Assembly (NCBI GenBank): GCA_014360055.1
Contig: JACIYH010000002.1
Coordinates: forward strand, 38,673-102,672
DNA from: Bacillota bacterium
GTDB lineage: Bacteria > Bacillota > Sulfobacillia > JACIYH01
DNA: 64,000 bases
Direction: 5' to 3'
This document shows, piece by piece, positions 9,817 through 60,268 of this stretch (the first letter of the stretch is position 1; the number at the start of each line of letters is the position of its first letter). The notes beneath the pieces are model-generated. The model was not told the origin of the DNA. It searched no databases and worked only from the letters and a program-made list of their open reading frames with translations. A program made the translations under genes and the position numbers.

Positions 9817-10646
9817 TCCGGGACGGATACCATGACGGCGCCACCAACATGGCCGTGGACGAGGCCATCATGCTGGCCCACGCCCGGGGAGAGGTTCCCC
9901 CCACCCTGCGCTTTTACGGCTGGCGGCCGCCCGCCCTGTCGCTGGGTTACGCCCAGAAGGCGGAGCGGGAAGTGGACCTGGAAGCCTGCCGCCGCGCCGG
10001 GGTGGACGTGGTGAGGCGGCCCACGGGCGGGCGGGCGGTGCTGCACGACCGCGAGGTGACCTACAGCGTGGTGATATCCACGGCCCTCTTCCCCGGGAGC
10101 GTGGTGGAAACCTACCGGCGGCTGAGTGCCGGCCTGGTGGAGGGTTTGCGCCTGCTCGGGTTGCAGGCCGAGGTACAGGAGGGGCCGCCCCGGGCGGGGT
10201 TGCGCTCGGCGGCCTGCTTCGACAGCCCTTCCTGGTACGAACTGGTGGTGGAGGGCAAGAAGGTGGTGGGCAGCGCCCAGGTGCGCAGGCTGGGGGTGCT
10301 GCTGCAGCACGGTTCCGTGCCGCTGGAGTTCTCGCCCGCGCAACTGGTTGGCCTGTTACGGCTACCCGCAGGCTGGCGGGCCCGCCTGCAGGAGGACCTG
10401 GCCGCCCACGCCGCCGGCCTGTGCGCCCTGGGGCCTCCCGTCACCTTCGCCGGGGTGTCCGACGCCCTGGCGGAGGGATTCCGGCGGGCCCTGGGCCTGG
10501 AACTCGAAGAACGCGGTCTCACTGCCGACGAGCAGGAAGAGGCCTCCAGGCTGCGGGAGGAGAAATACGCGACCTGGGAATGGAACGTGCTGGGCAAACT
10601 GCAAAGGGAGGATGCTGTCCGTGTACGACATAGTGGTGATCGGTAG
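9801..10646 (+). CDS. lipM: octanoyltransferase / lipoate-protein ligase family protein (LipM/LplA-like)
   Basis: TTG start; MRWRLIRDGYHDGATNMAVDEAIMLAHARGEVPPTLRFYGWRPPALSLGYAQ is close to B. subtilis LipM [22 protein letters not shown]...IRFYGW; 281 aa. Confidence 0.85.
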   Translation: MRWRLIRDGYHDGATNMAVDEAIMLAHARGEVPPTLRFYGWRPPALSLGYAQKAEREVDLEACRRAGVDVVRRPTGGRAVLHDREVTYSVVISTALFPGSVVETYRRLSAGLVEGLRLLGLQAEVQEGPPRAGLRSAACFDSPSWYELVVEGKKVVGSAQVRRLGVLLQHGSVPLEFSPAQLVGLLRLPAGWRARLQEDLAAHAAGLCALGPPVTFAGVSDALAEGFRRALGLELEERGLTADEQEEASRLREEKYATWEWNVLGKLQREDAVRVRHSGDR

Positions 10647-12018: not shown

Positions 12019-12142
12019 CCCCCTATGGGGGGAACCCCCCACCGGGCGCCGGCTGGCCCAGGCGGAGGCACCGTAAGGTACCGCTGCCGGCCCCCGCACG
12101 GGGCCGGGTCACCTCAGCGGAGAAAGCTGGGAGGAGGGAGCC

Positions 12143-13213
12143 TTGACGCGTCTTGAGGCGCTGAGGCGGAGCATGGCCGGGGAAGGGGTGGAGTACTTCC
12201 TGGTCACGGGGGCGGCCAACCGCCGCTACCTCTCCGGTTTCACGGGGTCCTCGGGAGTGCTGCTCATTTCCCCCGCGCGTTGCTGGCTGGTTACTGACTT
12301 CCGCTACTACGAGCAGGCCCGCCAGCAGGCCCCGGACTGGGAACTATATCCCCAGAAGGGGAAGCTGAGCGAGGCGCTGGGCGAACTGTTCCGCGAGCAG
12401 GGGATCTGCCGGCTGGGGTTCGAAAAGGACCACATGACGTACGCCCAGTACGAGACCTTAGCCCAACTGGGCCCGGAACTGGTGGGATACAGCGGGCTGG
12501 TGGAGAAGCTCCGCATGACCAAGGACGAGGGGGAGCTCGGCGCCATCAGGCGCGCGGCCGCCCTGGCCGACGAGGCCTTCGCCCACATCCTAACCGTGAT
12601 CCGGCCGGGGGTGCGGGAGGAGGAGGTGGCCCTGGAACTGGAGTATCATATGCGGAGGGCAGGCGCCAGCGCGGCAGCCTTCGACATCATCGTCGCCTCC
12701 GGTCCCCGTTCCGCCCTCCCCCACGGCCGGGCTTCTCCCCGGCGCATCGAGCCCGGTGACTTCGTTACCATGGACCTGGGCTGCGTGGTAGACGGGTATT
12801 GCTCCGACCTCACCCGCACCGTGGTGGTGGGCAGCGCAAATGATGAGCAGAGGAAGGTCTACGACCTGGTGGCCCGGGCCCAGGAGGCCGGCCTGGCCGC
12901 CCTGCGCGCGGGCCGGCGGGGGTCGGAGGTGGACGCGGAGGCCCGGCAGGTGATCGCAGAGGCGGGCCACGCCGACCACTTCGGCCACGGCCTGGGTCAC
13001 GGGGTGGGCCTGGAGGTGCACGAGGCGCCCCGCCTTTCGCCCCAGGCCGCGGGACCGGACGAGCCCGTCCTGGAACCGGGCATGGTCGTCACCGTGGAGC
13101 CGGGGGTATACATACCTGACTGGGGGGGAGTCCGGATCGAAGACCTGGTGGTGGTGCGGGAAGACGGTTGCGAGATCCTTTCCCGGGCGGATAAGCGGCT
13201 CATAGAGCTGTGA
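12143..13213 (+). CDS. Xaa-Pro aminopeptidase/dipeptidase, M24 family (YqhT-like)
   Basis: 356 aa; [13 protein letters not shown] motif; TTG start after GGAGGAGGGAG. Confidence 0.88.
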
Positions 13214-13884: not shown

Positions 13885-14274
13885 GTGGGCGACCTGAGTT
13901 CCCGGGTGGCTTACCTGAAGGGACTGGCAGAGGGGTTGAACCTGGAAGCCGAATCCAAGGAGGGCCGGCTGCTCAAGGCCATCCTGGACGTCCTGGGGGA
14001 GTTCGCCGAGGAAGTGGAAAGCCTGCGCGGCCGCGTCGACGAGCAGGAAGAGTACCTGGAAGACCTGGACGAGGACGTGGCCGAACTCGAGCAGCGCGTG
14101 CTGGAGACCGAAGAGGAAGAAGGGTTTGTGGAGGTGCAGTGCCCCCACTGCGGTGAGACGGTGTCCTTGGCGGAAGAGGAGTTCAGCGAGGAAGGTTCCA
14201 TGCAGCTGCGCTGCCCCAACTGCGGGGAACTCATCTACCGCGACGAGGAAGGGGAGGAAGAAGAGGGCGTATAG
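13885..14274 (+). CDS. acidic zinc-ribbon protein (CPHCGE...CPNCGE), hypothetical
   Basis: Two CxxC pairs; very acidic; GAAGGAGG RBS before GTG 13885; position corresponds to B. subtilis yqhV between efp and spoIIIAA. Confidence 0.6.
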   Translation: MGDLSSRVAYLKGLAEGLNLEAESKEGRLLKAILDVLGEFAEEVESLRGRVDEQEEYLEDLDEDVAELEQRVLETEEEEGFVEVQCPHCGETVSLAEEEFSEEGSMQLRCPNCGELIYRDEEGEEEEGV

Positions 14275-14528
14275 AACCCCCACGGGTGGGAAAGTATAAC
14301 AGCGAGCCCCGCAAGAGCCCCGGAACTTCTCGGGCCCCCCAAGGAAGCTCCCGGGCGGCGGGGCTCTCCGTTTTCGGGCGAGATTGAGATCCACCCCGCC
14401 GCGCCCCGGCTACCCGGCCCGGTCCCGGCTACGCCGGCCCGGCCGACCTTGGGGCGCCCGGTATTGGCTGGGTGTGCAGGAATATAGTGGACAAGGGGGG
14501 GTCATTGCTGGCGAGGGAGCCCGGCCAG

Positions 14529-15584
14529 GTGTGGGGAGACACGTCCGCCCGGCGGGGCTGGCGCGATGACCTGTTGCCACTTCTGGCCGAACCGGTGCGG
14601 GCCGCCCTGCGGTGTCTGGGGGAGGAAACGGCTGGCGGCCTTGAGGAGATCAGGCTGCGCGTGGGGCGTCCCCTGGCGGTGGGGGGCCGGGAGCAGGAGT
14701 ACTTCCTCACCCGGGATGGCCGGCCCACCCTGCGGCCGCAGGAGGCCTACCGGGTGACGCGGGCGGACCTGGAGGCCACCCTGCAACTCCTTTCACGGGG
14801 TTCCCTCTATGCCGTGGAGGAGCAGCTTCGCCAGGGCTACGTGACCGTGGCAGGCGGCCACCGGGTGGGGTTCTGCGGCCGGGCCGTGCTGGAGAACGGC
14901 CGCGTGACGGGCCTGGTTGACATATCGTCACTGAACTTCCGCATATGTCGGGAGGTGCCGGGTGCGGCTGACCCCATCATGCCCTACCTGGTCTCGGAAG
15001 GCCGGGTGCTGGGTGCCCTCATCCTGTCGCCGCCCCTGGCGGGGAAGACCACGGTCCTGCGCGATGCCGTGCGCCAGCTCTCCGACGGGGTACCGCGCCT
15101 GGGCCTGGCGGGGGTGAGGGTGTGCCTGGTGGACGAACGCTCCGAACTGGCGGGGTGCTGGAACGGGGAACCGCAGCGATACGTCGGTCTGCGCACCGAC
15201 GTCCTGGACGGGGTGCCCAAGGCCGCCGGCCTCATGATGGCGGTACGCGCCATGTCTCCCCAGGTCCTCGCTACGGACGAACTCGGGGGTGCGACTGACG
15301 CCGCGGCGGTCGAGGAGGCACTGTACGCAGGCGTGGCCGTGCTGGCCACCGCCCACGCGGCGTCCCTGGCGGAGGCCAGGTCGCGCCCCCACCTGGGGGA
15401 ACTGATCGCACGGGCGGCGTTCCCCCGCATCATCCTGCTCAGCCGGCGGCTGGGACCGGGCACCACGGAAGCGGTGTGGTCGGGCCGGGGGGAAAGTCTC
15501 CTCTCCAGGCCGCTGCCACCCGGACCGGCAACCCCGGGCGCCCGGCGTCCTCCAGGGCATATCCCCCCGGCACCGGCAATATGA
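14529..15584 (+). CDS. spoIIIAA: stage III sporulation protein AA (secretion-type ATPase)
   Basis: LEEIRLRVGRPLAV..., Walker A PPLAGKTT; start set to GTG 14529 (RBS GAGGGAG) by alignment to B. subtilis SpoIIIAA; the ORF extends upstream to 14472; Pro-rich C-terminal tail. Confidence 0.85.
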   Translation: MWGDTSARRGWRDDLLPLLAEPVRAALRCLGEETAGGLEEIRLRVGRPLAVGGREQEYFLTRDGRPTLRPQEAYRVTRADLEATLQLLSRGSLYAVEEQLRQGYVTVAGGHRVGFCGRAVLENGRVTGLVDISSLNFRICREVPGAADPIMPYLVSEGRVLGALILSPPLAGKTTVLRDAVRQLSDGVPRLGLAGVRVCLVDERSELAGCWNGEPQRYVGLRTDVLDGVPKAAGLMMAVRAMSPQVLATDELGGATDAAAVEEALYAGVAVLATAHAASLAEARSRPHLGELIARAAFPRIILLSRRLGPGTTEAVWSGRGESLLSRPLPPGPATPGARRPPGHIPPAPAI

Positions 15585-29719: not shown

Positions 29720-30343
29720 TTGGCGGGTGCAGCCGTGTTATATTGATGGTGCACAACTTTTGCGGCAGGTGGCGCAGTATCCTAGTCGGTGCCCCCATCT
29801 CTGAAGACGGGCCTAAAAATCCGTCGCGGGCACATCGATGAAGCCCCTGGTTCTGGCTTGTGACGCCCAGTCGTGGGCCGGGGCTGGGGGAATGGGGAAG
29901 GGGCGATCTACAACGGCATGTAGGCGTAGACCCTATCCCCGCGGAGGCCCGGGTACGCAGGTGAACTCTGCGGCCCGGGGACGACCTGCATTCGGCCGGC
30001 AAGCTGGGTGCAGTGTAGCCCGCCTTGAGTGGGCGGGGAGATGGCAGGTTCAGCTTCTTGCCGGTGGGCCCGCCGGCGGAAGCGGTGCTGCCCGAAACCC
30101 CGTCTGCAAAAGAGGCTAGGAGATGACGGGTGCTGTCGAGGAAAACTCCTAGGCTGTTTCCACCGGGGAGGCCGGGCGGGGATTGCAGTGTGTGCTCAGT
30201 GGTGATCCAGCGCCGTGGTGGGTGACGCCACGGGGCGGGACGTAAAGGGAAACCGCCCGGGCGGCGACGCCCGGGTGTCCCGTAGGGAAAGCCTGCTGGA
30301 CCTAAGCCACAACCTTTACCCGCCCGGTTGCCACCTGCCCACC

Positions 30344-32254
30344 ATGTATTATCCCCCCGAGGGCAGGGCCGTGGGACTGGAAGAGATCAGGGGTCCCCAT
30401 GATCTGAAAAGGCTGAGCGTCGCCGAACTGGAGAAGCTGGCGGAGGAACTCAGGAACCTCATCGTCGAGGTCACCTCGCGCACGGGTGGGCACGTGGGCC
30501 CCAGCCTGGGGGCGGTGGAACTGGCCCTGGCCGTCCATTCAGTTTTTTCGAGCCCGCAGGATGTCATCATATGGGACGTGGGGCATCAGGCGTACGCCCA
30601 CAAGATCCTTACGGGCAGGCGCGCCAGCTTCGATACCCTGCGCCAGCGGGGCGGCATTTCCGGGTATCCCGAGCGCAGCGAGTCGGAGCACGACCACTTC
30701 GGTACCGGCCATGCCTCCACCTCCGTGTCGGCCGCCATGGGGTTCGCCAAGGCCCGGGATCTGCGCCGGGAGACCCGGCAGGTGGTGGCCATCCTGGGGG
30801 ACGGGGCGCTGACGGGTGGGTTGGTCTACGAGGCCATGAACCACGCCGGCCAGGACCGCACCCACCTCATCGTCATCCTCAACGACAATTCCATGTCCAT
30901 TTCCCCCAACGTCGGTGCCCTGGCCCGCTATCTGGCCAGGGTGCGCTCGGCAGCCAGCTACCGGGGCGCCAAGGCACGCATCAAGAGAATCCTGGAACGC
31001 GTGAGCCCGGTGGACCTGGTGGGTGCCATCGAGCGCATCAAGGGCAGCATCAAGTACCTCCTTCTCCCGGGCGTGTTCTTCGAGGCGCTGGGGTTCACCT
31101 ACCTGGGCCCGGTGGACGGCCACGACATCACCGCCCTGCAGGAAGTGCTGCGGCAGGCCCGCGATCTGGACGGCCCCGTGCTGGTGCATGCGGTCACCCG
31201 CAAGGGGCGCGGGTACGAGCCGGCGGAGGCCGAGCCCGGCCTCTTCCACGGGCCGGGGCCGTTCGACCCCCGGACCGGGCGCCTCCACAGGGGCGACGGC
31301 ACCACCTGGAGCCAGGCCTTCGGCGCCATCGCCTGCGACCTGGCTGCCGCCGACCCCCGGGTGGTGGCCATTACGGCGGCCATGCGGGACGGCACGGGGC
31401 TTTCTGAGTTCGCGCGTCGCTTCCCCGACCGCTTCTTTGACGTGGGCATCGCCGAGGGCCATGCCGTCACTTTCGCCGCCGGCCTGGCCGCCGCCGGGAT
31501 GCGGCCCCTGGTGGCCATCTATTCCACGCTCCTGCAGCGGGCGTACGACCAGGTGGTGCACGATGTGGCGCGCCAGGGTCTACCGGTGGTGTTTTGCCTG
31601 GACCGGGCGGGAGTGGTGGGGGAAGACGGTTCCTCCCACCAGGGCCTGTACGACCTGGCCTACCTGCGCCACATCCCGGGCATGACCGTGGCCTGCCCCC
31701 GGGACGTGCCTGACCTGAGGGCCCTCCTCGAGCTGGGGCTGCGCATGGACGGCCCCCTGGCGGTACGCTACCCGCGGGCGGTGACGCCACCGGCGCTAAG
31801 TGGCGAGGGGCGCGGGCCCATCACCCGTGGCCGGGGTGAGTTGCTGCGCGCCGGGAGTGACGTCCTCCTCCTGGCCGTGGGCACCATGGTGGAGGTAGCC
31901 CTCGGGGCGGCCGGACTGCTGGAGAAAGAGGGTATCCGGGCTGCAGTGATCGACGCCCGCTTCGTCAAGCCCCTGGATGAAGCCCTGGTGCTGGCCTGGG
32001 CCGCCCGTACCGGTCACGTGGTCACGGTGGAAGAACACGTGTGCCAGGGGGGCTTCGGAAGCGCCGTGCTGGAGGCAATGGCGGCGGCCGGCCTGCGGGT
32101 GCCGGTGCAGGTGCTGGGGGTCCCGGACGAACACGTGGCCCATGGGTCCCGCCGGGAGTGGCTGGACCATTACCGGCTCACGCCGGCCGGAGTTGCGGAA
32201 GCCGCTCGCAGCCTCGTTTCGCACCGGCAGGCGGCGGCGGGCGGGGAGACCTGA
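30344..32254 (+). CDS. dxs: 1-deoxy-D-xylulose-5-phosphate synthase
   Basis: 636 aa from ATG 30344; TGGHVGPSLGAVELALAVH and GDGALTGG TPP motifs; in-frame part of ORF 30215..32254. Confidence 0.95.
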   Translation: MYYPPEGRAVGLEEIRGPHDLKRLSVAELEKLAEELRNLIVEVTSRTGGHVGPSLGAVELALAVHSVFSSPQDVIIWDVGHQAYAHKILTGRRASFDTLRQRGGISGYPERSESEHDHFGTGHASTSVSAAMGFAKARDLRRETRQVVAILGDGALTGGLVYEAMNHAGQDRTHLIVILNDNSMSISPNVGALARYLARVRSAASYRGAKARIKRILERVSPVDLVGAIERIKGSIKYLLLPGVFFEALGFTYLGPVDGHDITALQEVLRQARDLDGPVLVHAVTRKGRGYEPAEAEPGLFHGPGPFDPRTGRLHRGDGTTWSQAFGAIACDLAAADPRVVAITAAMRDGTGLSEFARRFPDRFFDVGIAEGHAVTFAAGLAAAGMRPLVAIYSTLLQRAYDQVVHDVARQGLPVVFCLDRAGVVGEDGSSHQGLYDLAYLRHIPGMTVACPRDVPDLRALLELGLRMDGPLAVRYPRAVTPPALSGEGRGPITRGRGELLRAGSDVLLLAVGTMVEVALGAAGLLEKEGIRAAVIDARFVKPLDEALVLAWAARTGHVVTVEEHVCQGGFGSAVLEAMAAAGLRVPVQVLGVPDEHVAHGSRREWLDHYRLTPAGVAEAARSLVSHRQAAAGGET

Positions 32255-33155: not shown

Positions 33156-33185
33156 TAGTCCGACCGGGTGAAGTGGGGGTAGGCC

Positions 33186-33638
33186 ATGAAAGCACGGCGC
33201 CAGATGAAGATCCTCGAGATCATCCGGGAACGCCCCGTGGAGACTCAGGAGGAACTGGCCCAGGAACTGCGCAAGCTGGGCATGCCCGTGACCCAGGCCA
33301 CCGTCTCCCGTGACATCAAGGATCTCAACCTGGTCAAGGTGCCAACCGGGGATGGCCGCCAGCGTTATGCTCCGCCGCAGGAGCAGGTGATGGCCGGGTT
33401 CGCGGACAGGCTGCGCAGGGTCCTGCGCGACAGCGTGCTGAGCCTGGAGGCCTCAGAAAACCTCATCGTGGTCAAGTGCCTAAGCGGTACCGCGCCCGCC
33501 GTGGGCGAGGCCCTGGACAACCTGCGCTGGCAGGAGATCGCGGGTACGGTGGCGGGCGACAACACCGTGCTCGTGGTGGTGCGGGGGCGGGAACGGTCCC
33601 AGAGCGTCCTGGAGCGGATGCGGCAGCTGATCGAGTAG
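33186..33638 (+). CDS. argR: arginine repressor
   Basis: 150 aa; winged-helix N-terminus plus oligomerisation domain (GDNTVLVV). Confidence 0.93.
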   Translation: MKARRQMKILEIIRERPVETQEELAQELRKLGMPVTQATVSRDIKDLNLVKVPTGDGRQRYAPPQEQVMAGFADRLRRVLRDSVLSLEASENLIVVKCLSGTAPAVGEALDNLRWQEIAGTVAGDNTVLVVVRGRERSQSVLERMRQLIE

Positions 33639-33649
33639 GAGGACCCCGG

Positions 33650-35365
33650 GTGCTCAGAGAGGTCTACATAGAGAACCTGGCTATCATAGGCCGGGTCCGG
33701 CTCAGCCTGGACGCCGGCCTCAATGTGCTCACCGGAGAAACGGGTGCCGGTAAATCGATGGTCATCGATGCCCTGGAGCTGGCCCTGGGCGGCCGAGCCT
33801 CCCCCGACCTCATCCGGGCCGGTGAGGACCGCCTGGTGGTGGAAGCTCTCTTCCAGGTGGATGCCGCCCGCTATCCACGGGCGGCGGCCGTCCTGGAAGA
33901 GATGGGGCTGACACCGGAGGAACTGGTGGTGAGCCGCGAGGTACAGCGCACAGGGCGTTCCCTCTGCCGCATCAACGGCCGCCCCGCCACCGTGGCCATG
34001 GCGCGCGCGGTCAGCCGCGGGCTGGTAGAACTGCACGGCCAGCACGAGCACCAGGTGTTGCTCGACCGCTCCAGTCATCTGGACTTGCTCGACCTCTTCG
34101 GCGGCCTGGGGGACCTCCGCCAGCGCGTAACGGAGGCCTACCGGCGCTGGCAGCGTATAAGGAAGGAACTGGAGGAGTTGCGTTCGTCGGCCCGGGAGAG
34201 GGCTCGCCGCCTGGACCTCCTGGAGTTCCAGATCAGGGAAATCGACGCTGCGCGCCTGCGCGCGGGCGAAGACGACGAGTTGCGCAGGGAACGGCAGGTC
34301 CTGGCCGCCGCGGAGAAGCTGGCGGGCAGCGCCCGCCAGGCCTACGAACTCCTCTACGGAGGGGCAGAGGACAGTGTCCACGACCGCCTGGCCCGCGCCG
34401 CCGCCCTGCTGGCAGAGGCGGCCCGGGTGGACGAGGGCCTGAACGGCCTGGCGGCGCAGGTGGCGGACCTGCTCGCGGCGGTGGACGAGGTGGCCCGGGA
34501 ACTGGGGGCCTACGCCGACGGCCTGGAGGCGGACCCCGCCCGGCTGGCGCAGGTAGAGGCGCGCCTGGCCGCCATCGACGCCCTGAAGCGCAAGTACGCC
34601 GACACCGTGGCCGGCATACTTGCCTTCCGGGAGGAGGCGGCACGGGAGCGCGAACGGCTGGCCGGAAGTGAGGAATCGGGCCGCGAACTGGAACGTGAAC
34701 TCCAGGAAGTGGAAGTGAGCCTGGCGGCACTGGCCCACGAGCTTTCCACCCGCCGGCTCGCCGCCGCCTCACAGCTGGCCGAACGCGTGACCGGGCACCT
34801 GCGCGAACTGGCAATGGGCTCCGCACGTTTCCTGGTGGACGTGCAGCAGGAGGAAGATGAGGGCGGTCTGGCCTGCGGCGGGCGCAGGCTGGCCGTGGCA
34901 TCCCACGGGGTGGATCGTGTCGAATTCGTCTTTTCTGCCAATCCGGGCGAGCCGGCGCGCGCGCTGGAGAGAGTGGCCTCCGGGGGCGAACTGTCGCGGG
35001 TCATGCTGGCCCTCAAGACCGTCCTGGCTGACCTGGACGGCATACCCACCCTCGTGTTCGATGAAGTGGACGCCGGCATCGGCGGCCACGTGGCGCACGT
35101 GCTGGGTGCCAAGCTCGCGCGCGTCTCGCAGCACCACCAGGTGGTGGTGGTGACCCACCTGGCGCCGGTGGCGGCCTTCGCCGCCCGCCACCTGGTGGTG
35201 GAAAAAAGTGTGAGCGGAGCGCGCACCGATGTGGACGTGCGATCGCTCGACGCCGAAGAAGAACGGCTGCACGAACTGGCGCGCATGCTGGGTGGAGCAG
35301 AGATTACCAGGGAAGCCCTGGAGCACGCCCGGCGCCTGCGCCAGGAAGCGGCCCCGCAGGCATAA
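33650..35365 (+). CDS. recN: DNA repair protein RecN
   Basis: GTG 33650 after GTAGGAGG; VLTGETGAGKSMVIDAL Walker A; long coiled coil; in-frame part of ORF 33476..35365. Confidence 0.93.
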   Translation: MLREVYIENLAIIGRVRLSLDAGLNVLTGETGAGKSMVIDALELALGGRASPDLIRAGEDRLVVEALFQVDAARYPRAAAVLEEMGLTPEELVVSREVQRTGRSLCRINGRPATVAMARAVSRGLVELHGQHEHQVLLDRSSHLDLLDLFGGLGDLRQRVTEAYRRWQRIRKELEELRSSARERARRLDLLEFQIREIDAARLRAGEDDELRRERQVLAAAEKLAGSARQAYELLYGGAEDSVHDRLARAAALLAEAARVDEGLNGLAAQVADLLAAVDEVARELGAYADGLEADPARLAQVEARLAAIDALKRKYADTVAGILAFREEAARERERLAGSEESGRELERELQEVEVSLAALAHELSTRRLAAASQLAERVTGHLRELAMGSARFLVDVQQEEDEGGLACGGRRLAVASHGVDRVEFVFSANPGEPARALERVASGGELSRVMLALKTVLADLDGIPTLVFDEVDAGIGGHVAHVLGAKLARVSQHHQVVVVTHLAPVAAFAARHLVVEKSVSGARTDVDVRSLDAEEERLHELARMLGGAEITREALEHARRLRQEAAPQA

Positions 35366-53103: not shown

Positions 53104-53844
53104 GTGCCGGGCGAAGACGCTGCCGGCCTCGAGAGGCACTTTCCCCTGGTGTGGTCGCTGGTGAACCGCCTGGGGATCAGTGGACCTGACCGTGAGGAGT
53201 TTTTCGCGGCCGGTTGCCTGGGCCTGGTGAAGGCGTGGAAGCGGTACGACCCCCAACTGGGTACCGCCTTTTCTACCTACGCGGTACCGGTCATCCTGGG
53301 GGAGTTGCGCCGCCAGCTGCACCGGTCGCGGGGGGTGAAGGTGCCGCGCCCGGCCCGCGACCTGGCCCTGCGGGCGCGGGAGGTACGTATCCGCCTGGCC
53401 CAGGAAAGGGGTGCCGAACCCACCCTGGCCGAAGTGGCCGCGGCCCTGGGCGTAGGGGTGGCCGACCTGGTGGCGGCTGAGGAAGCCTGCCTGCCCCCCC
53501 GATCCCTGGAGGCGGAGCCTTTCACCGCGGTGGCCGCGGCCACGCGGGACCCGGCCTCGGAGGAGGGCCTCGAACTCGGCCTGGCCCTGGGGCAACTGGA
53601 GCCCCGCGAGCGCGCCATCATCCGGGGGCGTTACTTCGAGGACCTCACCCAGCAGGAGGTGGCTGCGCGCCTCGGTATTTCCCAGTCACAGGTTTCGCGG
53701 CTCGAGCAGAAAGCCCTCGATCGCCTGCGCGAGCTTTTGGGAGGGCATACTCCTGGGCGGCTGCGAGACAAACTAGTAGCCGCAAAGGAGGGCGAGAAAC
53801 ATGCCGGTGGTGAAGGTGCTCGAGCTGGTGGGAAGTTCCCCTAA
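53104..53844 (+). CDS. sigF: RNA polymerase sporulation sigma factor sigma-F
   Basis: 246 aa; region 2 (FSTYAVPVILGELRR) and region 4 HTH (TQQEVAARLGISQSQVSRLEQKAL). Confidence 0.92.
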   Translation: MPGEDAAGLERHFPLVWSLVNRLGISGPDREEFFAAGCLGLVKAWKRYDPQLGTAFSTYAVPVILGELRRQLHRSRGVKVPRPARDLALRAREVRIRLAQERGAEPTLAEVAAALGVGVADLVAAEEACLPPRSLEAEPFTAVAAATRDPASEEGLELGLALGQLEPRERAIIRGRYFEDLTQQEVAARLGISQSQVSRLEQKALDRLRELLGGHTPGRLRDKLVAAKEGEKHAGGEGARAGGKFP

Positions 53845-54031
53845 CAGCTTCCAGGAGGCGGTGCAGAACGCGGTGACGGAAGCTGCCCGCACGGTGGACA
53901 ACATCACCGGGGTCGAGGTGGTCAACTGGACCGCGGAGGTGCAGGGACAGCAGTTGAGCGAGTTCCGCGCCAACGTGAAGGTGGCATTCGTGGTCGACAA
54001 CCAAAAGCGGAAGACGCGGCCGGGGGCCTGA
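53801..54031 (+). CDS. dodecin-family flavin-binding protein
   Basis: 76 aa; MPVVKVLELVGSSPNSFQEAVQNAVTEAARTV...EFRANVKVAF; AAGGAGGG RBS; overlaps the sigF 3' end by 44 nt. Confidence 0.75.
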   Translation: MPVVKVLELVGSSPNSFQEAVQNAVTEAARTVDNITGVEVVNWTAEVQGQQLSEFRANVKVAFVVDNQKRKTRPGA

Positions 54032-54034
54032 GAT

Positions 54035-54490
54035 ATGGCGCCGGCCCGGACTCCTCAGGAGGCTTACCAGCAGACGGCGCGGGCCATGCAACCGCGCCGT
54101 CCCATCCTCAAGAACACGGTACTCGCCTTCCTGGTGGGAGGTCTTATCTGCGCCCTGGCCCAGCTCTTCCTGTCCTACCTCCTGGGGCGCGGTGTACCCC
54201 AGAAGGAGGCGCTGGCGGTCACCTCGGGCTTCATGGTTTTCTGGGGTGCTTTCCTTACCGGGCTGGGGGTGTATGATAACATCGGCCGGGTGGGCGGGAT
54301 GGGTGCGGCCCTCCCCATCACCGGATTTGCCAACTCCATGGTCTCGCCGGCCATAGAGTACAAGCGGGAGGGGTACGTCCTGGGAGTGGGCGCCAAGCTG
54401 TTTACGGTGGCCGGTCCCGTCATCGTGTACGGCCTGGTATCGGCCGTGCTGGTGGTACTGGCCCGGTGGTTGCTTACCGGACGCCCCTGA
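54035..54490 (+). CDS. spoVAC: stage V sporulation protein AC
   Basis: 151 aa membrane protein; family match. Confidence 0.9.
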   Translation: MAPARTPQEAYQQTARAMQPRRPILKNTVLAFLVGGLICALAQLFLSYLLGRGVPQKEALAVTSGFMVFWGAFLTGLGVYDNIGRVGGMGAALPITGFANSMVSPAIEYKREGYVLGVGAKLFTVAGPVIVYGLVSAVLVVLARWLLTGRP

Positions 54491-54526: not shown

Positions 54527-55540
54527 TTGCCCAAGCGGCTGGGACAGCAGACGGTGGCCTTTTCGCGGCCTCCCGTCCTCTTGAGCACGGCCAGCGTGGT
54601 GGGCCCCGAAGAGGGCAAAGGCCCCCTGGGCCAGTACTTCGACGTGGTGAAGCAGGACCGCCTGCTCGGACAGAAGTCCTGGGAACTGGCCGAGGAGATG
54701 CTATGCGAAGAGGCCTGCGACCTGGCCATCAAGAAGGTGGGGCTCACCCCCCAGCAGGTGGACTTCTTCCTGGCCGGCGACCTGCTCAACCAGATTATCA
54801 CCGCCAATTTCTCCGCCCGCACCCTGGGTGTTCCCTTCCTGGGACTGTTCGGGGCGTGTTCCACCCTGGCGGAAGGACTTGCCCTGGGCGGGATGCTGCT
54901 CGACGGCGGTTTTGCCAGCACCGTGCTGACCGCCTGCGCCAGTCACCACGACACGGCGGAGAGGCAGTACCGCTACCCCACCGAACTGGGCGTGCAACGG
55001 CCTCCCACCGCCCAGTGGACGGTGACGGGTGCGGGTGCCGTGCTCATGGGGTTATCCGGCCCGGGCCCCGTCCTGACCCATGCCACGGTGGGTAAGGTCA
55101 TATCCATGGGGCTGAAGGATCCCGCCGACCTGGGGTCGGCCATGGCGCCCGCAGCGGCGGAAACCATCTGGCAGCACCTGCAGGACACCGGTCGCCTGCC
55201 CACCGACTACGACCTCATCGCCACCGGGGACCTGGGGGCGGTGGGTCACCCCATCTGCCGCCGCCTGCTGGCCGACCGGGGGCTGGCACTGGGGGAGAAC
55301 TTCACCGATTGTGGGTTGCTCATATACGACCGCAACCGGCAAAACGTGGACGCGGGTGGGTCCGGGTGCGGATGCTCCGCGGTGGTGTTCGCCTCTTACC
55401 TGGTGCCCCGCCTGATAGCGGGGGAAATCAGGAGGCTGCTGCTGGTTCCCACCGGGGCGCTGTTCAGTCCCACCTCGTGGAAGCAGGGACAGGACATACC
55501 TGCCGTTGCCCACGCCGTGGTGGTGGAAACTCCCGCCTGA
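54527..55540 (+). CDS. spoVAD: stage V sporulation protein AD (thiolase-fold DPA-binding protein)
   Basis: 337 aa; TTG start. Confidence 0.9.
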   Translation: MPKRLGQQTVAFSRPPVLLSTASVVGPEEGKGPLGQYFDVVKQDRLLGQKSWELAEEMLCEEACDLAIKKVGLTPQQVDFFLAGDLLNQIITANFSARTLGVPFLGLFGACSTLAEGLALGGMLLDGGFASTVLTACASHHDTAERQYRYPTELGVQRPPTAQWTVTGAGAVLMGLSGPGPVLTHATVGKVISMGLKDPADLGSAMAPAAAETIWQHLQDTGRLPTDYDLIATGDLGAVGHPICRRLLADRGLALGENFTDCGLLIYDRNRQNVDAGGSGCGCSAVVFASYLVPRLIAGEIRRLLLVPTGALFSPTSWKQGQDIPAVAHAVVVETPA

Positions 55541-55623
55541 CCACCAGGGTTCCGGGCCCTCGGTGTCAAACACGCTGTTATGGGAACGGGCGACCTCCCT
55601 CATATTGAGGCGCCCTGGACTAC

Positions 55624-55652
55624 TTGACATCGTAGCAGTTCCTATGTAGTAT
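55624..55652 (+). promoter_or_regulatory. sigma-A-type promoter upstream of the fur/perR-like gene (TTGACA-N17-TAGTAT)
   Basis: Seen directly in the sequence; RBS GAGGGGG 7 nt before ATG 55675. Confidence 0.5.
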
Positions 55653-55674
55653 TGGTTCCGAGGGGGTTAACCTC

Positions 55675-56139
55675 ATGAAGCGTGCGGCAGGGGCGGAACA
55701 CGAGATCCTGCGGTCGGCGGGCCTGCGGGTGACCCCGCAGCGGGTGGCCATCCTGAAGCTGCTGCGGGGCACCCGAGCCCACCCCAGCCCGGAGATGGTG
55801 TACCGGGAACTGAAACCCGCTTACCCGGGGCTCAGTCTCAACACGGTGTACCAGACCCTGCACGCCCTGGAGAAGGCGGGGGTACTCCGGCGCATCAGCA
55901 TGGAGGAGAACGTCTACCGCTTCGACGCCAACGTGGCACCCCACGTGCACCTGGTGTGCCGTGGATGCGGGCGGGTGGACGACTGCAACGGCGACCTGGA
56001 ACCCCTCCTGGAACACCTGGGCCGGGAGGTGGCTGCCCGTTGCGCCTGGGATATCCGGGCCCAGGACTCCTGTTTCTACGGTTACTGCCCCGGCTGCCGC
56101 AGCGAGGGTAAACCCCCCAAACCACGAGAGGAGGTTTGA
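55675..56139 (+). CDS. Fur-family metalloregulator (PerR/Fur-like)
   Basis: 154 aa; HTH ...VTPQRVAILKLL...; C-terminal CxxC...CxxC (CRGCG, CPGC). Confidence 0.9.
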   Translation: MKRAAGAEHEILRSAGLRVTPQRVAILKLLRGTRAHPSPEMVYRELKPAYPGLSLNTVYQTLHALEKAGVLRRISMEENVYRFDANVAPHVHLVCRGCGRVDDCNGDLEPLLEHLGREVAARCAWDIRAQDSCFYGYCPGCRSEGKPPKPREEV

Positions 56140-56142
56140 CCC

Positions 56143-56568
56143 GTGGACCTGATCAACGAGGTGAAGCTGGGGGTAGCCCGGGGTACGGCGGTGGAGGAGG
56201 CAGTGCGGCACAACTTCCGGGGAGAGACCACGGAGGTGGGGCTCTACCTGGCCATGGCCCGCCAGGCCTACCGGGAGGGCTATCCGGAAGTGGGGGAAGT
56301 GCTGGTGCGCATTGCCCGGGAGGAGGCCTGGCACGCAGCCGGCTACGCGGAACTGGCGGGCATGATTTCGGAGTCCACCGCCGAGAACGTCAAGAAGATG
56401 CTGGCCGGCGAGCAGGCCGCCAATCGCGGCAAGCGGGAGGCGGCGGTGAAGGCGAAGGAAGCGGGCGTGGATCCCGCCCACGACTTCTTCGACGAGACCT
56501 CTCGGGACGAGGGCCGTCACGCGCGGGCCCTGAAGGGGCTTCTGGACCGCTACTTCCCCAGCGCCTGA
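56143..56568 (+). CDS. rubrerythrin-family ferritin-like diiron protein (no rubredoxin domain)
   Basis: 141 aa; E...ExxH diiron motifs (EVGLYLAMARQ, EEAWHAAGY, DEGRHARAL). Confidence 0.85.
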   Translation: MDLINEVKLGVARGTAVEEAVRHNFRGETTEVGLYLAMARQAYREGYPEVGEVLVRIAREEAWHAAGYAELAGMISESTAENVKKMLAGEQAANRGKREAAVKAKEAGVDPAHDFFDETSRDEGRHARALKGLLDRYFPSA

Positions 56569-56579
56569 TGTCCCCACGG

Positions 56580-56606
56580 TAGGGGGTCCGCCTGTCGCAC
56601 CCCCTA
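56580..56606. terminator. hairpin between the convergent rubrerythrin and cPGS-like genes
   Basis: TAGGGGGT ccgcctgtcgc ACCCCCTA. Confidence 0.45.
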
Positions 56607-57956
56607 CCTTTTGGCGCCCAGGGGGGTGCCGGCGAGGTGCGCCTCCACGAAGGCCCGCACCACGTCCCCCAGGTCCGGCCTGCCTATCTCCTGTAGTTCG
56701 TACCGTACCCGCAGGGAGGGCTTGTCGATGGTCACCAGCCGCCCCAGGTCGATGGGGGTGGCCACCACCACCAGGTCGGCCGGGGTAGCGTTGATGGTCG
56801 CCTCCAGTTCGTGCACCTGCTGAGGGCTGTAGCCCATGGCGGGCAACACCCGCTCCAGGTGCGGATACCGGCGGTACACCTCGCGGATGCTGCCTTCCGC
56901 ATAGGGCCGCGGGTCGACCAGTTCTGCCGCCCCCCACCGCCGCGCGGCCAGCGTGCCCGCCCCGTAGGGCATCTCGCCGTGGGTCACCGTGGGCCCGTCC
57001 TCGACCACCAGCACGCGGCGACCGCGCACCCGGGCGGAATCCTCGGCAAAGATGGGGGAGGCGGCCTCGATGATGAGGGCGTCGGGGTTGAGGCTGGCCA
57101 CGTTGTCCCGCACCGCCAGCACGTCCTCGGGGCGGGCGGTATCAACCTTGTTGATCACCACCGCGTGCGCCCGGCGCACGTTGGTCTCCCCCGGATGGTA
57201 GGAGATCTCGTGGCCGGCGCGGTGGGGATCCACCACACACACCAGGTAGTCCGGGTAGAAGAAGGGGAGGTCGTTGTTGCCCCCGTCCCAGAGGACAACG
57301 TCGGCTTCTTCCTCGGCCGCCTGCAGGATGCGCCCGTAGTCGGCACCAGCGTATACGATGGCGCCCCGGTCCAGGTGAGGCTCGTACTCTTCCCTCTCCT
57401 CGATGGTGCAACCCTGCTCGTCCAGGTCGCGGTAGGAAGCGAAACGCTGGCACACCTGCCGGCGCAGGTCACCATAGGGCATGGGGTGACGGACCACCAC
57501 CACCCGGTAGCCGGCCTCCCGCAGCAGGCCGACGAGGCGGCGGGAGGTCTGACTCTTGCCGGAGCCCGTGCGGGCAGCCACCACCGCCAGCACGGGACGC
57601 CGGCTGCGCAGCATGGTGCGGTCCGGCCCCAGCAGCCAGAAGTCGGCCCCGCAGGCCAGTACCAGCGAGGCCCGGTGCATCACGTACTGGTGACTGACGT
57701 CGCTGTACGAGAACACCACAGCGTCGGCCGCCAGTTCCCTGATGAGACGGGGGAGTTCGTCCTCGGGATAGATGGGGATGCCCTCGGGGTACAGTTCCCC
57801 CGCCAGTTCGGGCGGATAAGTACGGTTGGCGATGTCGGGAATCTGGGTGGCGGTGAACGCCACCACGCGATAGCGGGGGTCGCGGCGGAAGACGGTGTTG
57901 AAATCGTGGAAGTCGCGACCCGCTGCCCCCATGATGATGACCCTGGTCGGTGGCAC
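56604..57956 (-). CDS. cyclic 2,3-diphosphoglycerate synthetase (cPGS)-like P-loop protein
   Basis: Minus-strand ORF trimmed to GTG 57956 (RBS GGGAGGGAG); VIIMGAAGRDFHDFN..., Walker A AARTGSGKSQT, CTIEEREEYEPH, WDGGNND all match the cPGS family pattern; the only credible minus-strand gene in the window. Confidence 0.7.
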   Translation of the reverse strand: MPPTRVIIMGAAGRDFHDFNTVFRRDPRYRVVAFTATQIPDIANRTYPPELAGELYPEGIPIYPEDELPRLIRELAADAVVFSYSDVSHQYVMHRASLVLACGADFWLLGPDRTMLRSRRPVLAVVAARTGSGKSQTSRRLVGLLREAGYRVVVVRHPMPYGDLRRQVCQRFASYRDLDEQGCTIEEREEYEPHLDRGAIVYAGADYGRILQAAEEEADVVLWDGGNNDLPFFYPDYLVCVVDPHRAGHEISYHPGETNVRRAHAVVINKVDTARPEDVLAVRDNVASLNPDALIIEAASPIFAEDSARVRGRRVLVVEDGPTVTHGEMPYGAGTLAARRWGAAELVDPRPYAEGSIREVYRRYPHLERVLPAMGYSPQQVHELEATINATPADLVVVATPIDLGRLVTIDKPSLRVRYELQEIGRPDLGDVVRAFVEAHLAGTPLGAKR

Positions 57957-58107
57957 GCTTTCTCCCTCCCTAGACTTTATGCAACACTGTATATGCACTG
58001 CCCGTATGATTCTCCCGTTCCCTCCCTGTTTCCTTCTGCACGGCAGGGCGGTCACGCATAGGGAAGGGGAAGGGCGCGGAGAATAGCGCGCGGAGGGAAG
58101 ACGGCAC

Positions 58108-58458
58108 GTGCAGGTACTGGTGGCCTTCCTGGTCGGGGGCTGCCTGTGCGCCCTCGCCCAACTGGTGCTGGACATCGCCAAACTCCAGCCCGCCCACGTC
58201 ATGGTGCTCTTCGTCACCCTGGGCGCCGTGGCCAGCGGGTTAGGGCTGTACGGTTCCCTGGTACGGGTGGCAGGCGCGGGCGCCAGCATCCCGCTGGCAG
58301 GGTTCGGCCACGTGCTGGTACAGGGTATCGCCGAGGACGTAGCCACCAGGGGCGCCATCGGCCTGTTCACGGGCGGGTTCCGGGCTGCCTCTCTGGCCCT
58401 CAGCGCTGCGGTATTCTTCGCCTGGCTGATGAGCGTGCTGTTCAACCCCCGGGGTTAG
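58108..58458 (+). CDS. spoVAE: stage V sporulation protein AE (SpoVAEB-type membrane protein)
   Basis: 116 aa; MQVLVAFLVGGCLCALAQLVLDIAKL... Confidence 0.88.
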   Translation: MQVLVAFLVGGCLCALAQLVLDIAKLQPAHVMVLFVTLGAVASGLGLYGSLVRVAGAGASIPLAGFGHVLVQGIAEDVATRGAIGLFTGGFRAASLALSAAVFFAWLMSVLFNPRG

Positions 58459-58461: not shown

Positions 58462-59940
58462 ATGGACAGGGAGCAAAGGCTGGCGCGCAAGCTGGAAGAT
58501 AACCTCAAGGTCCTGGAGGGGGAACTGGGGGTCGGGGTGAGCTTCGACATCCTGGCCCGGCGGCTCAACATCGCGGGCCGGGATGCCGCCCTGCTGGGCG
58601 TGGACGGCCTGGTCAACGACGCCGTCCTCACCAACATCCTGCGCACCATGCTGCGCCTCAAGCGGGAGGACCTCACCCCCGACGCCATGCGTTCCCTCTT
58701 CCAGGAAGGAATTCCCCACATCGAGGTAAACGCCGTCACCACCTACGGTGCGGTGATCGACCAGGTACTGAGTGGCCCGGTGGTACTGCTGGTGGACGGC
58801 CTGGACACCGCTTTCGCCATTGACGTGCGTACCTACCCGGCCCGCAGCCCCCAGGAGCCGCAGCTGGAGCGGGTGCTCAGGGGTTCGCGGGACGGATTCG
58901 TGGAAACCCTGGTCTTCAACACCGCCCTCATCCGGCGGCGCATCCGCGACCCCCGCCTGCGGGTGGAGCGCTTCCAGGTGGGGCGTCGCTCAAAGACGGA
59001 CGTGGTACTGGTCTACCTTCAGGACGTGGCCAATCCCAAACTGGTAGCCCAGGTACGCGACCAGTTGAAGGAGATCCAGGTGGACGCCATCCCCATGGCG
59101 GAAAAGAGCGTGGAGGAGTACCTGCAGTCCCGGCCCGCACAGTGGTGGAATCCCTTTCCCCTGGTGCGGTACACGGAGCGCCCCGACGTGGCTGCCGTGC
59201 ACCTCTTCGAGGGACACCTGGTGATCCTGGTGGACACTTCTCCGTCCGCCATGATCCTGCCCGTGACCTTTTTCCACCACATCCAGCACGCGGAGGAGTA
59301 CCGGGAAGACGTCTCCGTGGGCACCTACCTGCGCCTGATCCGCTTCCTGGGAATCATGCTCGCGTGGGTGGGACCGCCCCTGTGGGTGGCTCTGGTTCTC
59401 AGCAAGGATCTCCTTCCACCCGCCTGGCAGTTCCTGGGACCCAAGAAACCGGGTACGGTGCCGCTCCCCCTGCAGTTCTTCATCGGGGAAATGGTACTCG
59501 ACCTGGTGCGCCTGGCCCTCATCCATACCCCCGAGCCTGTGTCCACCGCCCTGGGCTTCATCGGTACCGTCCTGCTCGGCCAGATCGCCGCCGAGGTGGG
59601 CCTGCTGGCCAGCGAGACCGTGCTATACGTGGCCCTGGCCGCCCTGGGCGGCTTTGCCACCCCCAGCATGGAGTTCGCCATGGCCGTGCGCCTGATGCGC
59701 CTCCTCCTGCTCGTGGCGACCGCCTTCTTCCGCATTTGGGGGGTGGCGGTGCTGTTCTTCCTCCAGTTTGTCTTCCTCGGGTTCACTCGCTCCTTCGGCG
59801 TCCCCTACCTGTGGCCGCTCATCCCGCCGGATTGGGGCGCCTTCAAGGCGGTCACCCTGCGCCTGCCCACGCCCGCTCGCCACGTGAGGCCGTCCATCCT
59901 GAAGCCCAAAGAGAAAAAGACGTCCCGCCGGCGCGGGTGA
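58462..59940 (+). CDS. spoVAF: spore germination protein, GerA-family A subunit / SpoVAF
   Basis: 492 aa; soluble N-terminal domain plus C-terminal TM bundle; GerAA family pattern. Confidence 0.88.
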   Translation: MDREQRLARKLEDNLKVLEGELGVGVSFDILARRLNIAGRDAALLGVDGLVNDAVLTNILRTMLRLKREDLTPDAMRSLFQEGIPHIEVNAVTTYGAVIDQVLSGPVVLLVDGLDTAFAIDVRTYPARSPQEPQLERVLRGSRDGFVETLVFNTALIRRRIRDPRLRVERFQVGRRSKTDVVLVYLQDVANPKLVAQVRDQLKEIQVDAIPMAEKSVEEYLQSRPAQWWNPFPLVRYTERPDVAAVHLFEGHLVILVDTSPSAMILPVTFFHHIQHAEEYREDVSVGTYLRLIRFLGIMLAWVGPPLWVALVLSKDLLPPAWQFLGPKKPGTVPLPLQFFIGEMVLDLVRLALIHTPEPVSTALGFIGTVLLGQIAAEVGLLASETVLYVALAALGGFATPSMEFAMAVRLMRLLLLVATAFFRIWGVAVLFFLQFVFLGFTRSFGVPYLWPLIPPDWGAFKAVTLRLPTPARHVRPSILKPKEKKTSRRRG

Positions 59941-60024: not shown

Positions 60025-60053
60025 TTGACGGGGCGTCCTGCGTGTGCTACTAT
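60025..60053 (+). promoter_or_regulatory. sigma-A promoter for lysA (TTGACG-N17-TACTAT with TGn extended -10)
   Basis: Seen directly; lies immediately upstream of the lysine riboswitch. Confidence 0.55.
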
Positions 60054-60077: not shown

Positions 60078-60268
60078 TCTGGAGGTGAGGTAGAGGCGCG
60101 GTGGGCCATGAGTACCGCCGGGGAGCCCGGCAGGCTGTGATCCGGGGGAAAGGGGCCGCCGCCGAAGTCGCGGGAAGGCCGCTTCCTGCGGCTGGGGTTG
60201 CACCGAACAGGTGCAGCACTGTCACCGGTTGACGTCCCCTGATCACCGGTGGAGCGCTATCTCACGCC
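60078..60268 (+). ncRNA. lysine riboswitch (L-box) controlling lysA, followed by an anti-Shine-Dalgarno hairpin
   Basis: GTAGAGGCGC, GGGGGAAAGGGGCCGCCGCCGAAG, GCACTGTCACCGG, GGTGGAGCGCTATC match the L-box core; downstream CCTTCCTCCC can pair with the GGGGGAAGG RBS of lysA. Confidence 0.85.

Follow-up and report, generated by a model that had tools for sequence, protein, structure and literature searches.

How does a gene set as stable as spoVA come to be split by unrelated genes, and what do the intervening genes encode? The question is raised by a 64,000-nucleotide stretch of DNA, here called the window, from a Bacillota bacterium (GTDB lineage Sulfobacillia, JACIYH01; assembly GCA_014360055.1, contig JACIYH010000002.1, positions 38,673 to 102,672 of the forward strand), with a G+C content of 68.8%. 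From 52.3 kb onward, its genes follow the order spoIIAA, spoIIAB, sigF, dodecin, spoVAC, spoVAD, Fur, rubrerythrin, a P-loop protein gene on the minus strand, spoVAEb, spoVAF and lysA. A sequence-only reading of the window had proposed that a Fur/PerR-rubrerythrin pair and the opposite-strand P-loop gene, about 2.5 kb in all, separate the two halves of the spoVA set. The open reading frames (ORFs) and family assignments hold, and 2,567 bp separate the spoVAD stop (55540) from the spoVAE start (58108). Our explanation, which we consider probable as a whole, is that spoVAD and spoVAEb are separated by an old, clade-specific island of three genes: perR and rbr, which form a peroxide-stress pair, and arcE, a predicted arginine synthetase gene. 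The spoVA genes on either side would work as two units. The sequence data show the identities of the genes, their family membership in sequence and in fold, the derived status and age of the island and the conservation of the motifs; enzyme activity, promoter use, read-through and any link of the island to sporulation are the parts of this explanation that we infer. The genes concerned are the following:

53801..54031, plus strand: dodecin gene at the head of the spoVA unit (PF07311, 86 bits)
54035..54490, plus strand: spoVAC (PF03862, 128 bits; TIGR02838, 169.8 bits, above its cutoff of 164)
54527..55540, plus strand: spoVAD (PF07451, 492 bits; NF006160, 498.8 bits, above its cutoff of 402)
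55675..56139, plus strand: gene for a PerR-like Fur-family regulator, 154 aa (PF01475, 89 bits)
56143..56568, plus strand: gene for a rubredoxin-less rubrerythrin (“erythrin”, sulerythrin-like), 141 aa (PF02915, 53.6 bits)
56604..57956, minus strand: arcE-family gene for a P-loop protein of 450 aa (assigned by ArcE homology and family neighbourhoods)
58108..58458, plus strand: spoVAEb (PF03862, 103 bits; TIGR02839, 127.5 bits, just under its cutoff of 131.1)
58462..59940, plus strand: spoVAF, GerA family (PF03323, 505 bits)

The gene for the 450-aa protein starts with GTG at 57956, with a GGGAGGG ribosome-binding site 7 nt before it, and its homologs share this start position. As the sequence-only reading had stated, it is the sole minus-strand gene that could be identified in the 64 kb: the other long minus-strand ORFs have no Pfam match and show the base composition of antisense frames, and the ambiguous stretches correspond to plus-strand genes (recN, spoIIIAE, TsaD-like, Asp23).

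Whether the split is derived was addressed with 80 spoVAD loci of other Firmicutes, taken from one-genome-per-species collections, onto which the window proteins were mapped. The best SpoVAD match in the species-representative collection is at 63%, so the species of the window lies outside that collection. spoVAE directly follows spoVAD, about 10-130 bp apart, in 79 of these loci, which makes the insertion derived and agrees with the earlier description of the arrangement as unusual; a Fur, rubrerythrin or P-loop gene at the spoVAD-spoVAE junction occurs in none of the 80. The single exception, locus L044 of a Peptococcaceae metagenome-assembled genome, carries an IS110-family transposase at the junction, on the opposite strand (10666-12530; PF01548 and PF02371). 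Close relatives were located via the P-loop protein. The same order in three independent metagenome assemblies, from a strain with a 99%-identical P-loop protein, shows that the arrangement is not an assembly artefact. The Fur and P-loop genes also lie between spoVAD and spoVAE in lineages whose P-loop proteins are 86% and 88% identical, and every relative sampled, to as low as about 80% nucleotide identity, has the island. In the 86-88% relatives (loci L081 and L084), the position directly upstream of spoVAE is taken by a further gene, about 415 aa in length and oriented divergently to the P-loop gene, which matches the threonine synthase model NF006050 (306-313 bits, cutoff 303); in L084, a PuuR-like helix-turn-helix (HTH)-cupin regulator stands in place of rubrerythrin. 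As to whether the order is ancestral and its product already known, the nearest relatives share the order and the P-loop family now has a known function. The locus is a lineage-specific quirk of gene order, and no new system.

The P-loop protein itself has no family model in Pfam or NCBIfam and gives only sub-threshold P-loop matches, and its identity has to be sought among its homologs. ArcE (TK2200) of Thermococcus kodakarensis catalyzes the reaction Arg + ADP + Pi <-> Cit + NH3 + ATP (Michimori, Yokooji & Atomi, PNAS 2024; PMC11032458) and yields ATP by substrate-level phosphorylation (PMC11032458). Homologs of ArcE, recorded as hypothetical proteins or “putative GTPase”, share an LpxK (4EHY)-like core and are often encoded near arcB and arcC; such adjacency is not required, as TK2200, TK0871 and TK2158 are dispersed (PMC11032458). 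The gene is carried by Thermococcales, Desulfurococcales (Hyperthermus, Pyrodictium) and Thermoproteales, as well as by many bacteria, including Bacillota, Chloroflexi and Synechocystis, and by a few eukaryotes (PMC11032458). The family to which the window protein belongs comprises at least 8,000 matches, with 66-72% identity across Chloroflexota, WOR-3, Hydrothermae and Bacillota, and clustering at 50% gives 693 clusters with E < 1e-30. The window protein aligns to a protein of Hyperthermus butylicus (P0296) across 438 of its 450 aa at 48% identity, with a single gap (E 3e-149), and shares 49% identity with a Thermoproteota member (P0133). A search seeded with a Thermoproteota member leads to proteins of Hyperthermus butylicus, Pyrodictium occultum and Ignisphaera; none of the ten distant family cluster representatives that were looked up bears a Thermococcales name. 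All 127 invariant columns of a multi-phylum alignment of 41 sequences are kept in the window protein.

Gene neighbourhoods provide the second line of evidence. Reference proteins were mapped onto 87 loci that contain a family member. Carbamate kinase is encoded on the same strand in 16 of them, within about 1.1 kb save for one anomalous match; in 4 of these 16, it follows 3 nt downstream and is itself followed by ornithine carbamoyltransferase (OTC), in the order arcE-arcC-arcB. OTC is found within 1 kb in 7 loci, the arginyl-tRNA synthetase gene argS directly upstream in 16, and an acetylornithine-aminotransferase-family gene directly upstream in 4 (with a match in 5). Altogether, carbamate kinase, OTC or argS stands beside the family gene in 34 of the 87 loci, an arginine-gene signature that leads to the match with the arginine synthetase ArcE. 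The window protein is 59-68% identical to members in arginine-gene contexts, and because the same range holds for members of all context classes, no separate subfamily is apparent. Fur, rubrerythrin or spoVA genes are next to a family member in none of the 87 other loci. The association with arginine genes also extends to a carbamate kinase-ArcE fusion (P0123; TIGR00746, 337 bits) and to a haloarchaeal megaplasmid (L175; NZ_CP147842.1, 108706-110046), on which a 59% identical copy is divergent from an annotated arcC.

From this combination of homology and context, the window protein is very probably a member of the ArcE family, and its product is most likely an arginine synthetase, an activity predicted from the sequence. 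The names “GTPase” and “cyclic 2,3-diphosphoglycerate synthase”, under which sources list family members, can be traced to the fact that cyclic 2,3-diphosphoglycerate synthetase (cPGS) is the closest relative among solved structures. The megaplasmid copy L175, which its record annotates as “cyclic 2,3-diphosphoglycerate synthase”, is an example of such a misleading label. Among the members P0127, P0142 and P0248, some look eukaryotic and have long low-complexity inserts (655 and 651 aa), and one has an intein that carries a LAGLIDADG domain (806 aa).

The other two island genes are more conventional. The best NCBIfam models for the Fur-family protein are PerR types, which outrank all Fur, Zur and Irr models, and its best solved relative is Bacillus subtilis PerR (2FE3, E 2.5e-19). 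The alignment to 2FE3 conserves H37, D85, H91, H93 and D104, which we take to be the PerR regulatory ligands, and both CxxC pairs, presumably the Cys4 zinc site. The rubrerythrin gene starts 4 nt after perR, and its product scores above the PF02915 cutoff of 22.8. The translation contains the diiron pattern E28...E61xxH64...E90...E123xxH126 with two ExxH motifs. A C-terminal rubredoxin domain is absent, as the 141-aa protein ends after the bundle (NF045767, 43 against a cutoff of 200), and the best solved relative is sulerythrin (E 1e-10). The earlier assignment of a Fur/PerR regulator and a rubrerythrin-like diiron protein is borne out by these residues, and perR-rbr is an ordinary peroxide-stress pair of a known kind. 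PerR-rubrerythrin pairs are a common module in anaerobic Firmicutes, e.g., in operons of Clostridium acetobutylicum and C. difficile; we know of no other case of such a pair inside spoVA.

How the split set might be expressed can be gauged from promoter-like and terminator-like elements around the island:

53745..53775, plus strand: forespore-type (sigma-G/F-like) motif P1, GCATA-N19-CAAACTA, located within sigF at its 3' end, with the dodecin start 26 nt further on
55624..55652, plus strand: sigma-A-like promoter of perR-rbr, TTGACA-17-TAGTAT, matching 10 of 12 consensus positions, 22 nt before perR
56578..56608, unstranded: inverted repeat forming a hairpin between the convergent rbr and arcE stops, with a 10-bp GC-rich stem and then TTTT on the plus strand
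58056..58085, plus strand: forespore-type motif P2, GCATA-N18-GAGAATA, 22 nt before the spoVAE start
60025..60053, plus strand: sigma-A-like promoter, TTGACG-17-TACTAT with TG, before lysA
60083..60267, plus strand: lysine riboswitch (RF00168, 109.9 bits; gathering score 30)

The sequence-only reading had given perR-rbr a sigma-A-type promoter of its own, and a site of this kind is indeed present; its hexamers and spacing are the same in L081 and weaker in L084, and such sites number 2 in 10 kb where 0.8 are expected. The hairpin between rbr and arcE folds with -28.4 kcal/mol (z -3.1) on the plus strand and -35.0 kcal/mol (z -4.5) on the minus strand, and none of 200 shuffles folds as well, so that it likely serves as a bidirectional terminator for the convergent genes. 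Hairpins after spoVAD (z -1.6) and spoVAF (z 0.0) are not significant; at the former position, this leaves read-through from spoVAD into perR-rbr possible. The pattern GHATR-N17-19-CAHWHTA matches P1 and nothing else in the window, where chance would give 0.11 matches; the elements of P1 are identical in L081 and L084, with a different spacer. The relaxed sigma-G-type pattern has two matches when both strands of the 64 kb are scanned, against 0.34 expected, and P2 is one of them; its elements are likewise identical in L081 and L084, with spacers that differ, and there it overlaps the stop codon of the threonine-synthase-like gene. A separate spoVAE promoter near 58060-58107, as suggested earlier, is plausible in view of this conserved motif. 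The strict sigma-G pattern with a spacer of 17-18 nt has no match anywhere in the window, and relaxed forms were needed. Downstream of spoVAF, lysA forms a separate unit, with a promoter and a lysine riboswitch of its own. These consensus-level predictions support an arrangement of the spoVA genes in two units.

Three observations accompany these elements. The mechanical ORF start of lysA (60249) overlaps the aptamer, so the real start should lie further downstream; a gene caller gives 391 aa in L171. The other relaxed sigma-G-type match (14269-14298, plus strand, GTATA-N18-AAGTATA) lies about 90 nt before spoIIIAA (14388-15584), a gene that in Bacillus belongs to a mother-cell sigma-E operon. 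The dodecin gene stands between sigF and spoVAC with a 44-nt overlap with the 3' end of sigF; a dodecin match at the equivalent position in 23 of the 80 other Firmicute spoVAD loci suggests that it is tied to the spoVA unit by a conserved, unexplained link.

In the picture that we propose, a PerR-type metal-dependent repressor would be co-transcribed with a diiron rubrerythrin of the peroxide reductase type from the sigma-A-type promoter, and transcription of the pair would end at the strong hairpin. On the opposite strand, the arcE product, a two-domain P-loop enzyme, would interconvert arginine, ADP and phosphate with citrulline, NH3 and ATP. Dodecin-spoVAC-spoVAD would run from P1 and may read through into perR-rbr, spoVAEb-spoVAF would run from P2, and the spoVA genes would still work, as two units.

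Several points weigh against this picture. The link of the P-loop protein to TK2200 runs through archaeal homologs that are named by genus in PMC11032458 and through no direct alignment, and in the literature searched only one family member, an archaeal one, has been assayed, leaving bacterial members without biochemistry. By tblastn, neither OTC nor carbamate kinase is found in the 64-kb window or in the relatives' loci of 19-21 kb (nor is there an arginyl-tRNA synthetase gene in either), and the relatives have no arcB or arcC within 10 kb. The clade instead pairs arcE with a threonine-synthase-like pyridoxal-phosphate (PLP) enzyme, to which the 78% relative L174 adds an ORF that looks carbamoyltransferase-like by eye and a PuuR-like regulator. 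Inspection by eye upstream of arcE gave no fit to a sigma-A, sigma-E, sigma-K or sigma-F/G consensus. For the spoVA genes, the promoters are consensus matches only: P1 lies in coding DNA with a spacer of 19 nt, 1 nt over the textbook 17-18 nt of sigma-G/F promoters, and is a prediction only for these reasons, and two positions of the P2 -10 element (GAGAATA) do not fit CAHWHTA. Finally, the Fur-family protein scores below the cutoffs of the PerR models (NF052545, 133.9 against 180; NF047406, 84 against 200), and a PerR box was not recognised by eye in 55541-55674 or in a three-way alignment.

The partners of arcE in its own clade lend themselves to an alternative, namely that the 450-aa protein is an ArcE-like paralog with a shifted substrate that phosphorylates the ureido or guanidino group of another compound, working with the divergent threonine-synthase-like PLP enzyme and a carbamoyltransferase and not in the arginine synthetase pathway. 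The relevant features are:

L081 8497-9744, L084 8582-9841 and L174 139-1398, each divergent from arcE: threonine-synthase-like PLP gene (NF006050 in L081 and L084; Pfam PALP only in the L174 copy)
58037..58071, unstranded: junction at which the relatives carry the threonine-synthase-like gene of about 1.3 kb and its leader, both absent from the window
57974..58012, unstranded: conserved 39-nt block with TGCA repeats (three units) upstream of arcE, conserved in L081 and L084 (both at about 9945-9985)

The divergent pair of arcE and the threonine-synthase-like (thrC-like) gene is kept in every sampled relative, at 78-88% identity, and is not found in the window lineage. Next after the PLP gene, L174 has an ORF starting LKTDVFKGRDFISELEYTKEELETILDVAFQLK, whose first 47 residues look by eye like the N-terminus of a carbamoyltransferase, and a MobA-like gene and the PuuR-like regulator lie on the other side of arcE; a PuuR-like HTH-cupin regulator thus flanks arcE in both L084 and L174. 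These neighbours, together with the lack of arcB and arcC nearby, make a shifted substrate possible. The window itself speaks against it: blastn homology to L084 is interrupted after 58036 and picks up again at 58072 (at 58056 for L081), a five-way alignment resolves the 150-bp arcE-spoVAE spacer as a composite of both ends of the relatives' region, and the thrC-like gene with its leader is cleanly missing. Since the window kept arcE without the thrC-like gene, the two are separable. Moreover, neither the 59-68% identity to members embedded in arcE-arcC-arcB loci and to those of all context classes, without a subfamily, nor the retention of every invariant column fits a change of substrate, which we regard as unlikely. 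ArcE and the threonine-synthase-like enzyme might nevertheless act in an undescribed route in this clade.

The TGCA-repeat block contains an imperfect palindrome, TATGCA-N4-TGTATA at 57978-57993 (one mismatch), which is perfect in L081 and L084 (TATGCA-N4-TGCATA), and is a candidate operator or promoter of arcE. Neither an ARG box nor a PerR box was recognised by eye upstream of arcE. The window also encodes an argR gene (33183-33638, plus strand; PF01316 and PF02863), placed directly before recN (33314-35365) as in Bacillus, which is potentially relevant to arcE regulation.

A second alternative would make the island part of the forespore programme: perR-rbr would be read through from spoVAC/AD for peroxide protection, and ArcE would turn spore arginine into ATP at germination. 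Consistent with this idea, there is no convincing terminator after spoVAD and a strong hairpin after rbr, and the position of the island between two forespore-type motifs is conserved. Free arginine is present in dormant Bacillus spores and is regarded as a potential energy reserve (PMC5574573), and ArcE makes ATP by substrate-level phosphorylation (PMC11032458). Yet arcE has no forespore-type motif in front of it, perR-rbr comes with a sigma-A-type promoter of its own, rubrerythrin is replaceable (L084) and the thrC-like gene dispensable, and a link to sporulation genes is seen at none of the 87 other arcE loci. Any link of the island to sporulation is possible on the basis of its position, which by itself is weak evidence; a forespore role seems improbable to us. 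If the placement were adaptive all the same, the forespore would be loaded with a peroxide-reducing erythrin by read-through from the spoVAC/AD promoter, and free arginine or arginine derived from small acid-soluble spore proteins could supply ATP, up to 2 ATP per arginine together with OTC and carbamate kinase, adding a spore energy reserve to 3-phosphoglycerate.

That the island is a recent horizontal insertion or the cargo of a mobile element is very unlikely. The sequence-only reading took the lone minus-strand gene as a hint of horizontal insertion, and two further observations point the same way: the same junction carries an IS110 element in lineage L044, and the island content differs among relatives, with rubrerythrin giving way to HTH-cupin in L084 and the thrC-like gene present or absent. 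Against this, the island is compositionally typical of the window, as a comparison of its GC content and codon usage with the flanks makes clear. Its genes have a GC content of 0.675-0.689 and a third-position GC content (GC3) of 0.83-0.88, around means of 0.685 and 0.852 for the window; along the island GC shows no change of level, and the synonymous-codon likelihoods of the three genes under the usage of the other 45 genes give z-scores of +0.5, +1.5 and +1.1. Neither flanking repeats, i.e., a direct-repeat or insertion sequence signature, nor transposase, integrase or other mobile-element genes were found at the island. Its native composition, the lack of mobile-element marks and its presence throughout the sampled clade thus argue that the insertion is not recent, and the hint drawn from strand orientation is backed by none of these features.

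The sequence-only reading had further regarded the minus-strand product as cPGS-like, citing four hallmark blocks. In a phmmer search against the sequences of the Protein Data Bank (PDB), the protein reaches E 0.016 to the cPGS entry 9sxb over residues 213-322 only (about 110 residues), and with the 41-sequence family profile, cPGS chains match this segment at E 1.3e-8 and 2.9e-6, a remote similarity confined to about 110 residues. Structural alignments to solved cPGS show a common fold at 14-16% identity with TM-scores of 0.43-0.49. In cPGS, the P-loop residues K145 and R146 bind 2,3-diphosphoglycerate (PMC10690619); their counterparts here are T130 and G131, both invariant across the family of the window protein, in an alignment that is anchored unambiguously by the Walker A GK[ST] and is of low confidence on either side of it. 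All four blocks are present in the product, as claimed, but where they can be aligned they are not blocks of cPGS: WDGGNND aligns to LEGSGAT (9sxb) and MEGSGAA (8ORU), and GSGKSQT to RVGKTAI and RIGKTAV, with only GK[ST] as a common core. The other two lie in regions that HMMER could not align to cPGS, and all four are conserved in the Hyperthermus ArcE-family protein. The low similarity of ArcE to cPGS is also noted in the ArcE study, which takes cPGS homologs as the outgroup (PMC11032458). That the minus-strand gene encodes a genuine cPGS making cyclic 2,3-diphosphoglycerate (cDPG) as a thermoprotectant is hardly credible, given this distance, the replaced substrate ligands, the recurrent neighbours arcC, arcB and argS in place of glycolytic or 2-phosphoglycerate kinase genes, and a family range spanning Chloroflexi, WOR-3, haloarchaea and eukaryote-like sequences, whereas cDPG is reported only from hyperthermophilic methanogens (PMC10690619). 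The accompanying statement that cPGS-like bacterial proteins are essentially uncharacterised is out of date, as the family has been known as arginine synthetase since 2024 (PMC11032458). Two other candidates were dropped: a G3E metallochaperone, considered for weak cobW/MeaB matches, on the fold and neighbourhood results, and a novel acyl or homoserine kinase, considered for PTA_PTB and thrC neighbours, because neighbourhoods are dominated by carbamate kinase, OTC and argS.

For our preferred explanation, an old island with a peroxide pair and a probable arginine synthetase gene, several consequences follow. The label “cyclic 2,3-diphosphoglycerate synthase” on bacterial family members should not count as evidence of thermoprotection by cDPG, and as no Pfam or NCBIfam model matches the window protein, this misleading label will keep spreading. 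A bacterial ArcE homolog without arcB/arcC, in a clade where its partner is a threonine-synthase-like gene, offers a good opening for studying the role of ArcE in bacteria. The locus also indicates that splitting is possible in a spoVAC-AD-AE unit that is otherwise very stable, each half having a conserved forespore-type promoter-like motif. If arcE or rbr were expressed in the forespore, the locus would make it possible to test directly whether arginine serves spores as an energy reserve.

Elsewhere in the window, a full-length OLE (Ornate Large Extremophilic) RNA (RF01071, 468 bits; 29753-30350, plus strand) lies directly before dxs (ORF 30206-32254), with no obvious OapA-like partner ORF seen between the two, and a glycine riboswitch aptamer (RF00504, 44.9 bits; 3104-3253, plus strand) is located at the 5' end of the ORF frame 3028-4524.

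Compared with known systems, the perR-erythrin pair and the arcE homolog are both of known kinds; what is unusual is their location and the uncoupling of arcE from arcB/arcC. The window protein resembles ArcE TK2200 in its size of about 440-450 aa, its two-domain LpxK/cPGS-like P-loop fold, the labels “GTPase” and “cPGS” attached to its family, a family neighbourhood with carbamate kinase and ornithine carbamoyltransferase, and a broad distribution that includes Bacillota. Unlike TK2200, it is bacterial, known from sequence alone and encoded without adjoining arcB/arcC, inside the spoVA set beside perR-rbr and, in the relatives, beside a threonine-synthase-like gene. From the cPGS of Methanothermus fervidus (PDB 8ORK/8ORU; PMC10690619), the protein differs in overall sequence (14-16% identity), in the exchange of K145/R146 for T130/G131, in conserved blocks that, where they can be aligned, the methanogen enzyme does not have, and in gene neighbourhoods and taxonomic range.

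The PerR-like protein shares with B. subtilis PerR (2FE3) the Fur fold, the PerR ligands and the Cys4 zinc site, and differs from it in falling under the NCBIfam PerR equivalog cutoffs and in the lack of a PerR box recognised by eye. As in the PerR-rubrerythrin pairs of anaerobic Firmicutes, perR is directly followed by a rubrerythrin-type gene; unlike them, the pair sits inside spoVA, a position in which it is absent from the 80 comparison loci. The erythrin is similar to sulerythrin of Sulfurisphaera (Sulfolobus) tokodaii (PDB 1J30) in its length (about 141-144 aa), in consisting of a diiron four-helix bundle only and in its two ExxH motifs, whereas it aligns confidently in its first half only (residues 13-71), is of bacterial origin and is encoded in predicted co-transcription with perR.

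In Bacillus, the spoVA operon comprises spoVAA-AF followed by lysA, and in Clostridia it comprises spoVAC-AD-AE. The window agrees with these operons in its order of spoIIAA-AB-sigF, spoVAC-AD, spoVAEb-AF and lysA, and in its forespore-type promoter motifs; it departs from them in that spoVAD and spoVAEb are separated by 2.6 kb of unrelated genes and in that the downstream half has a conserved promoter-like motif of its own.

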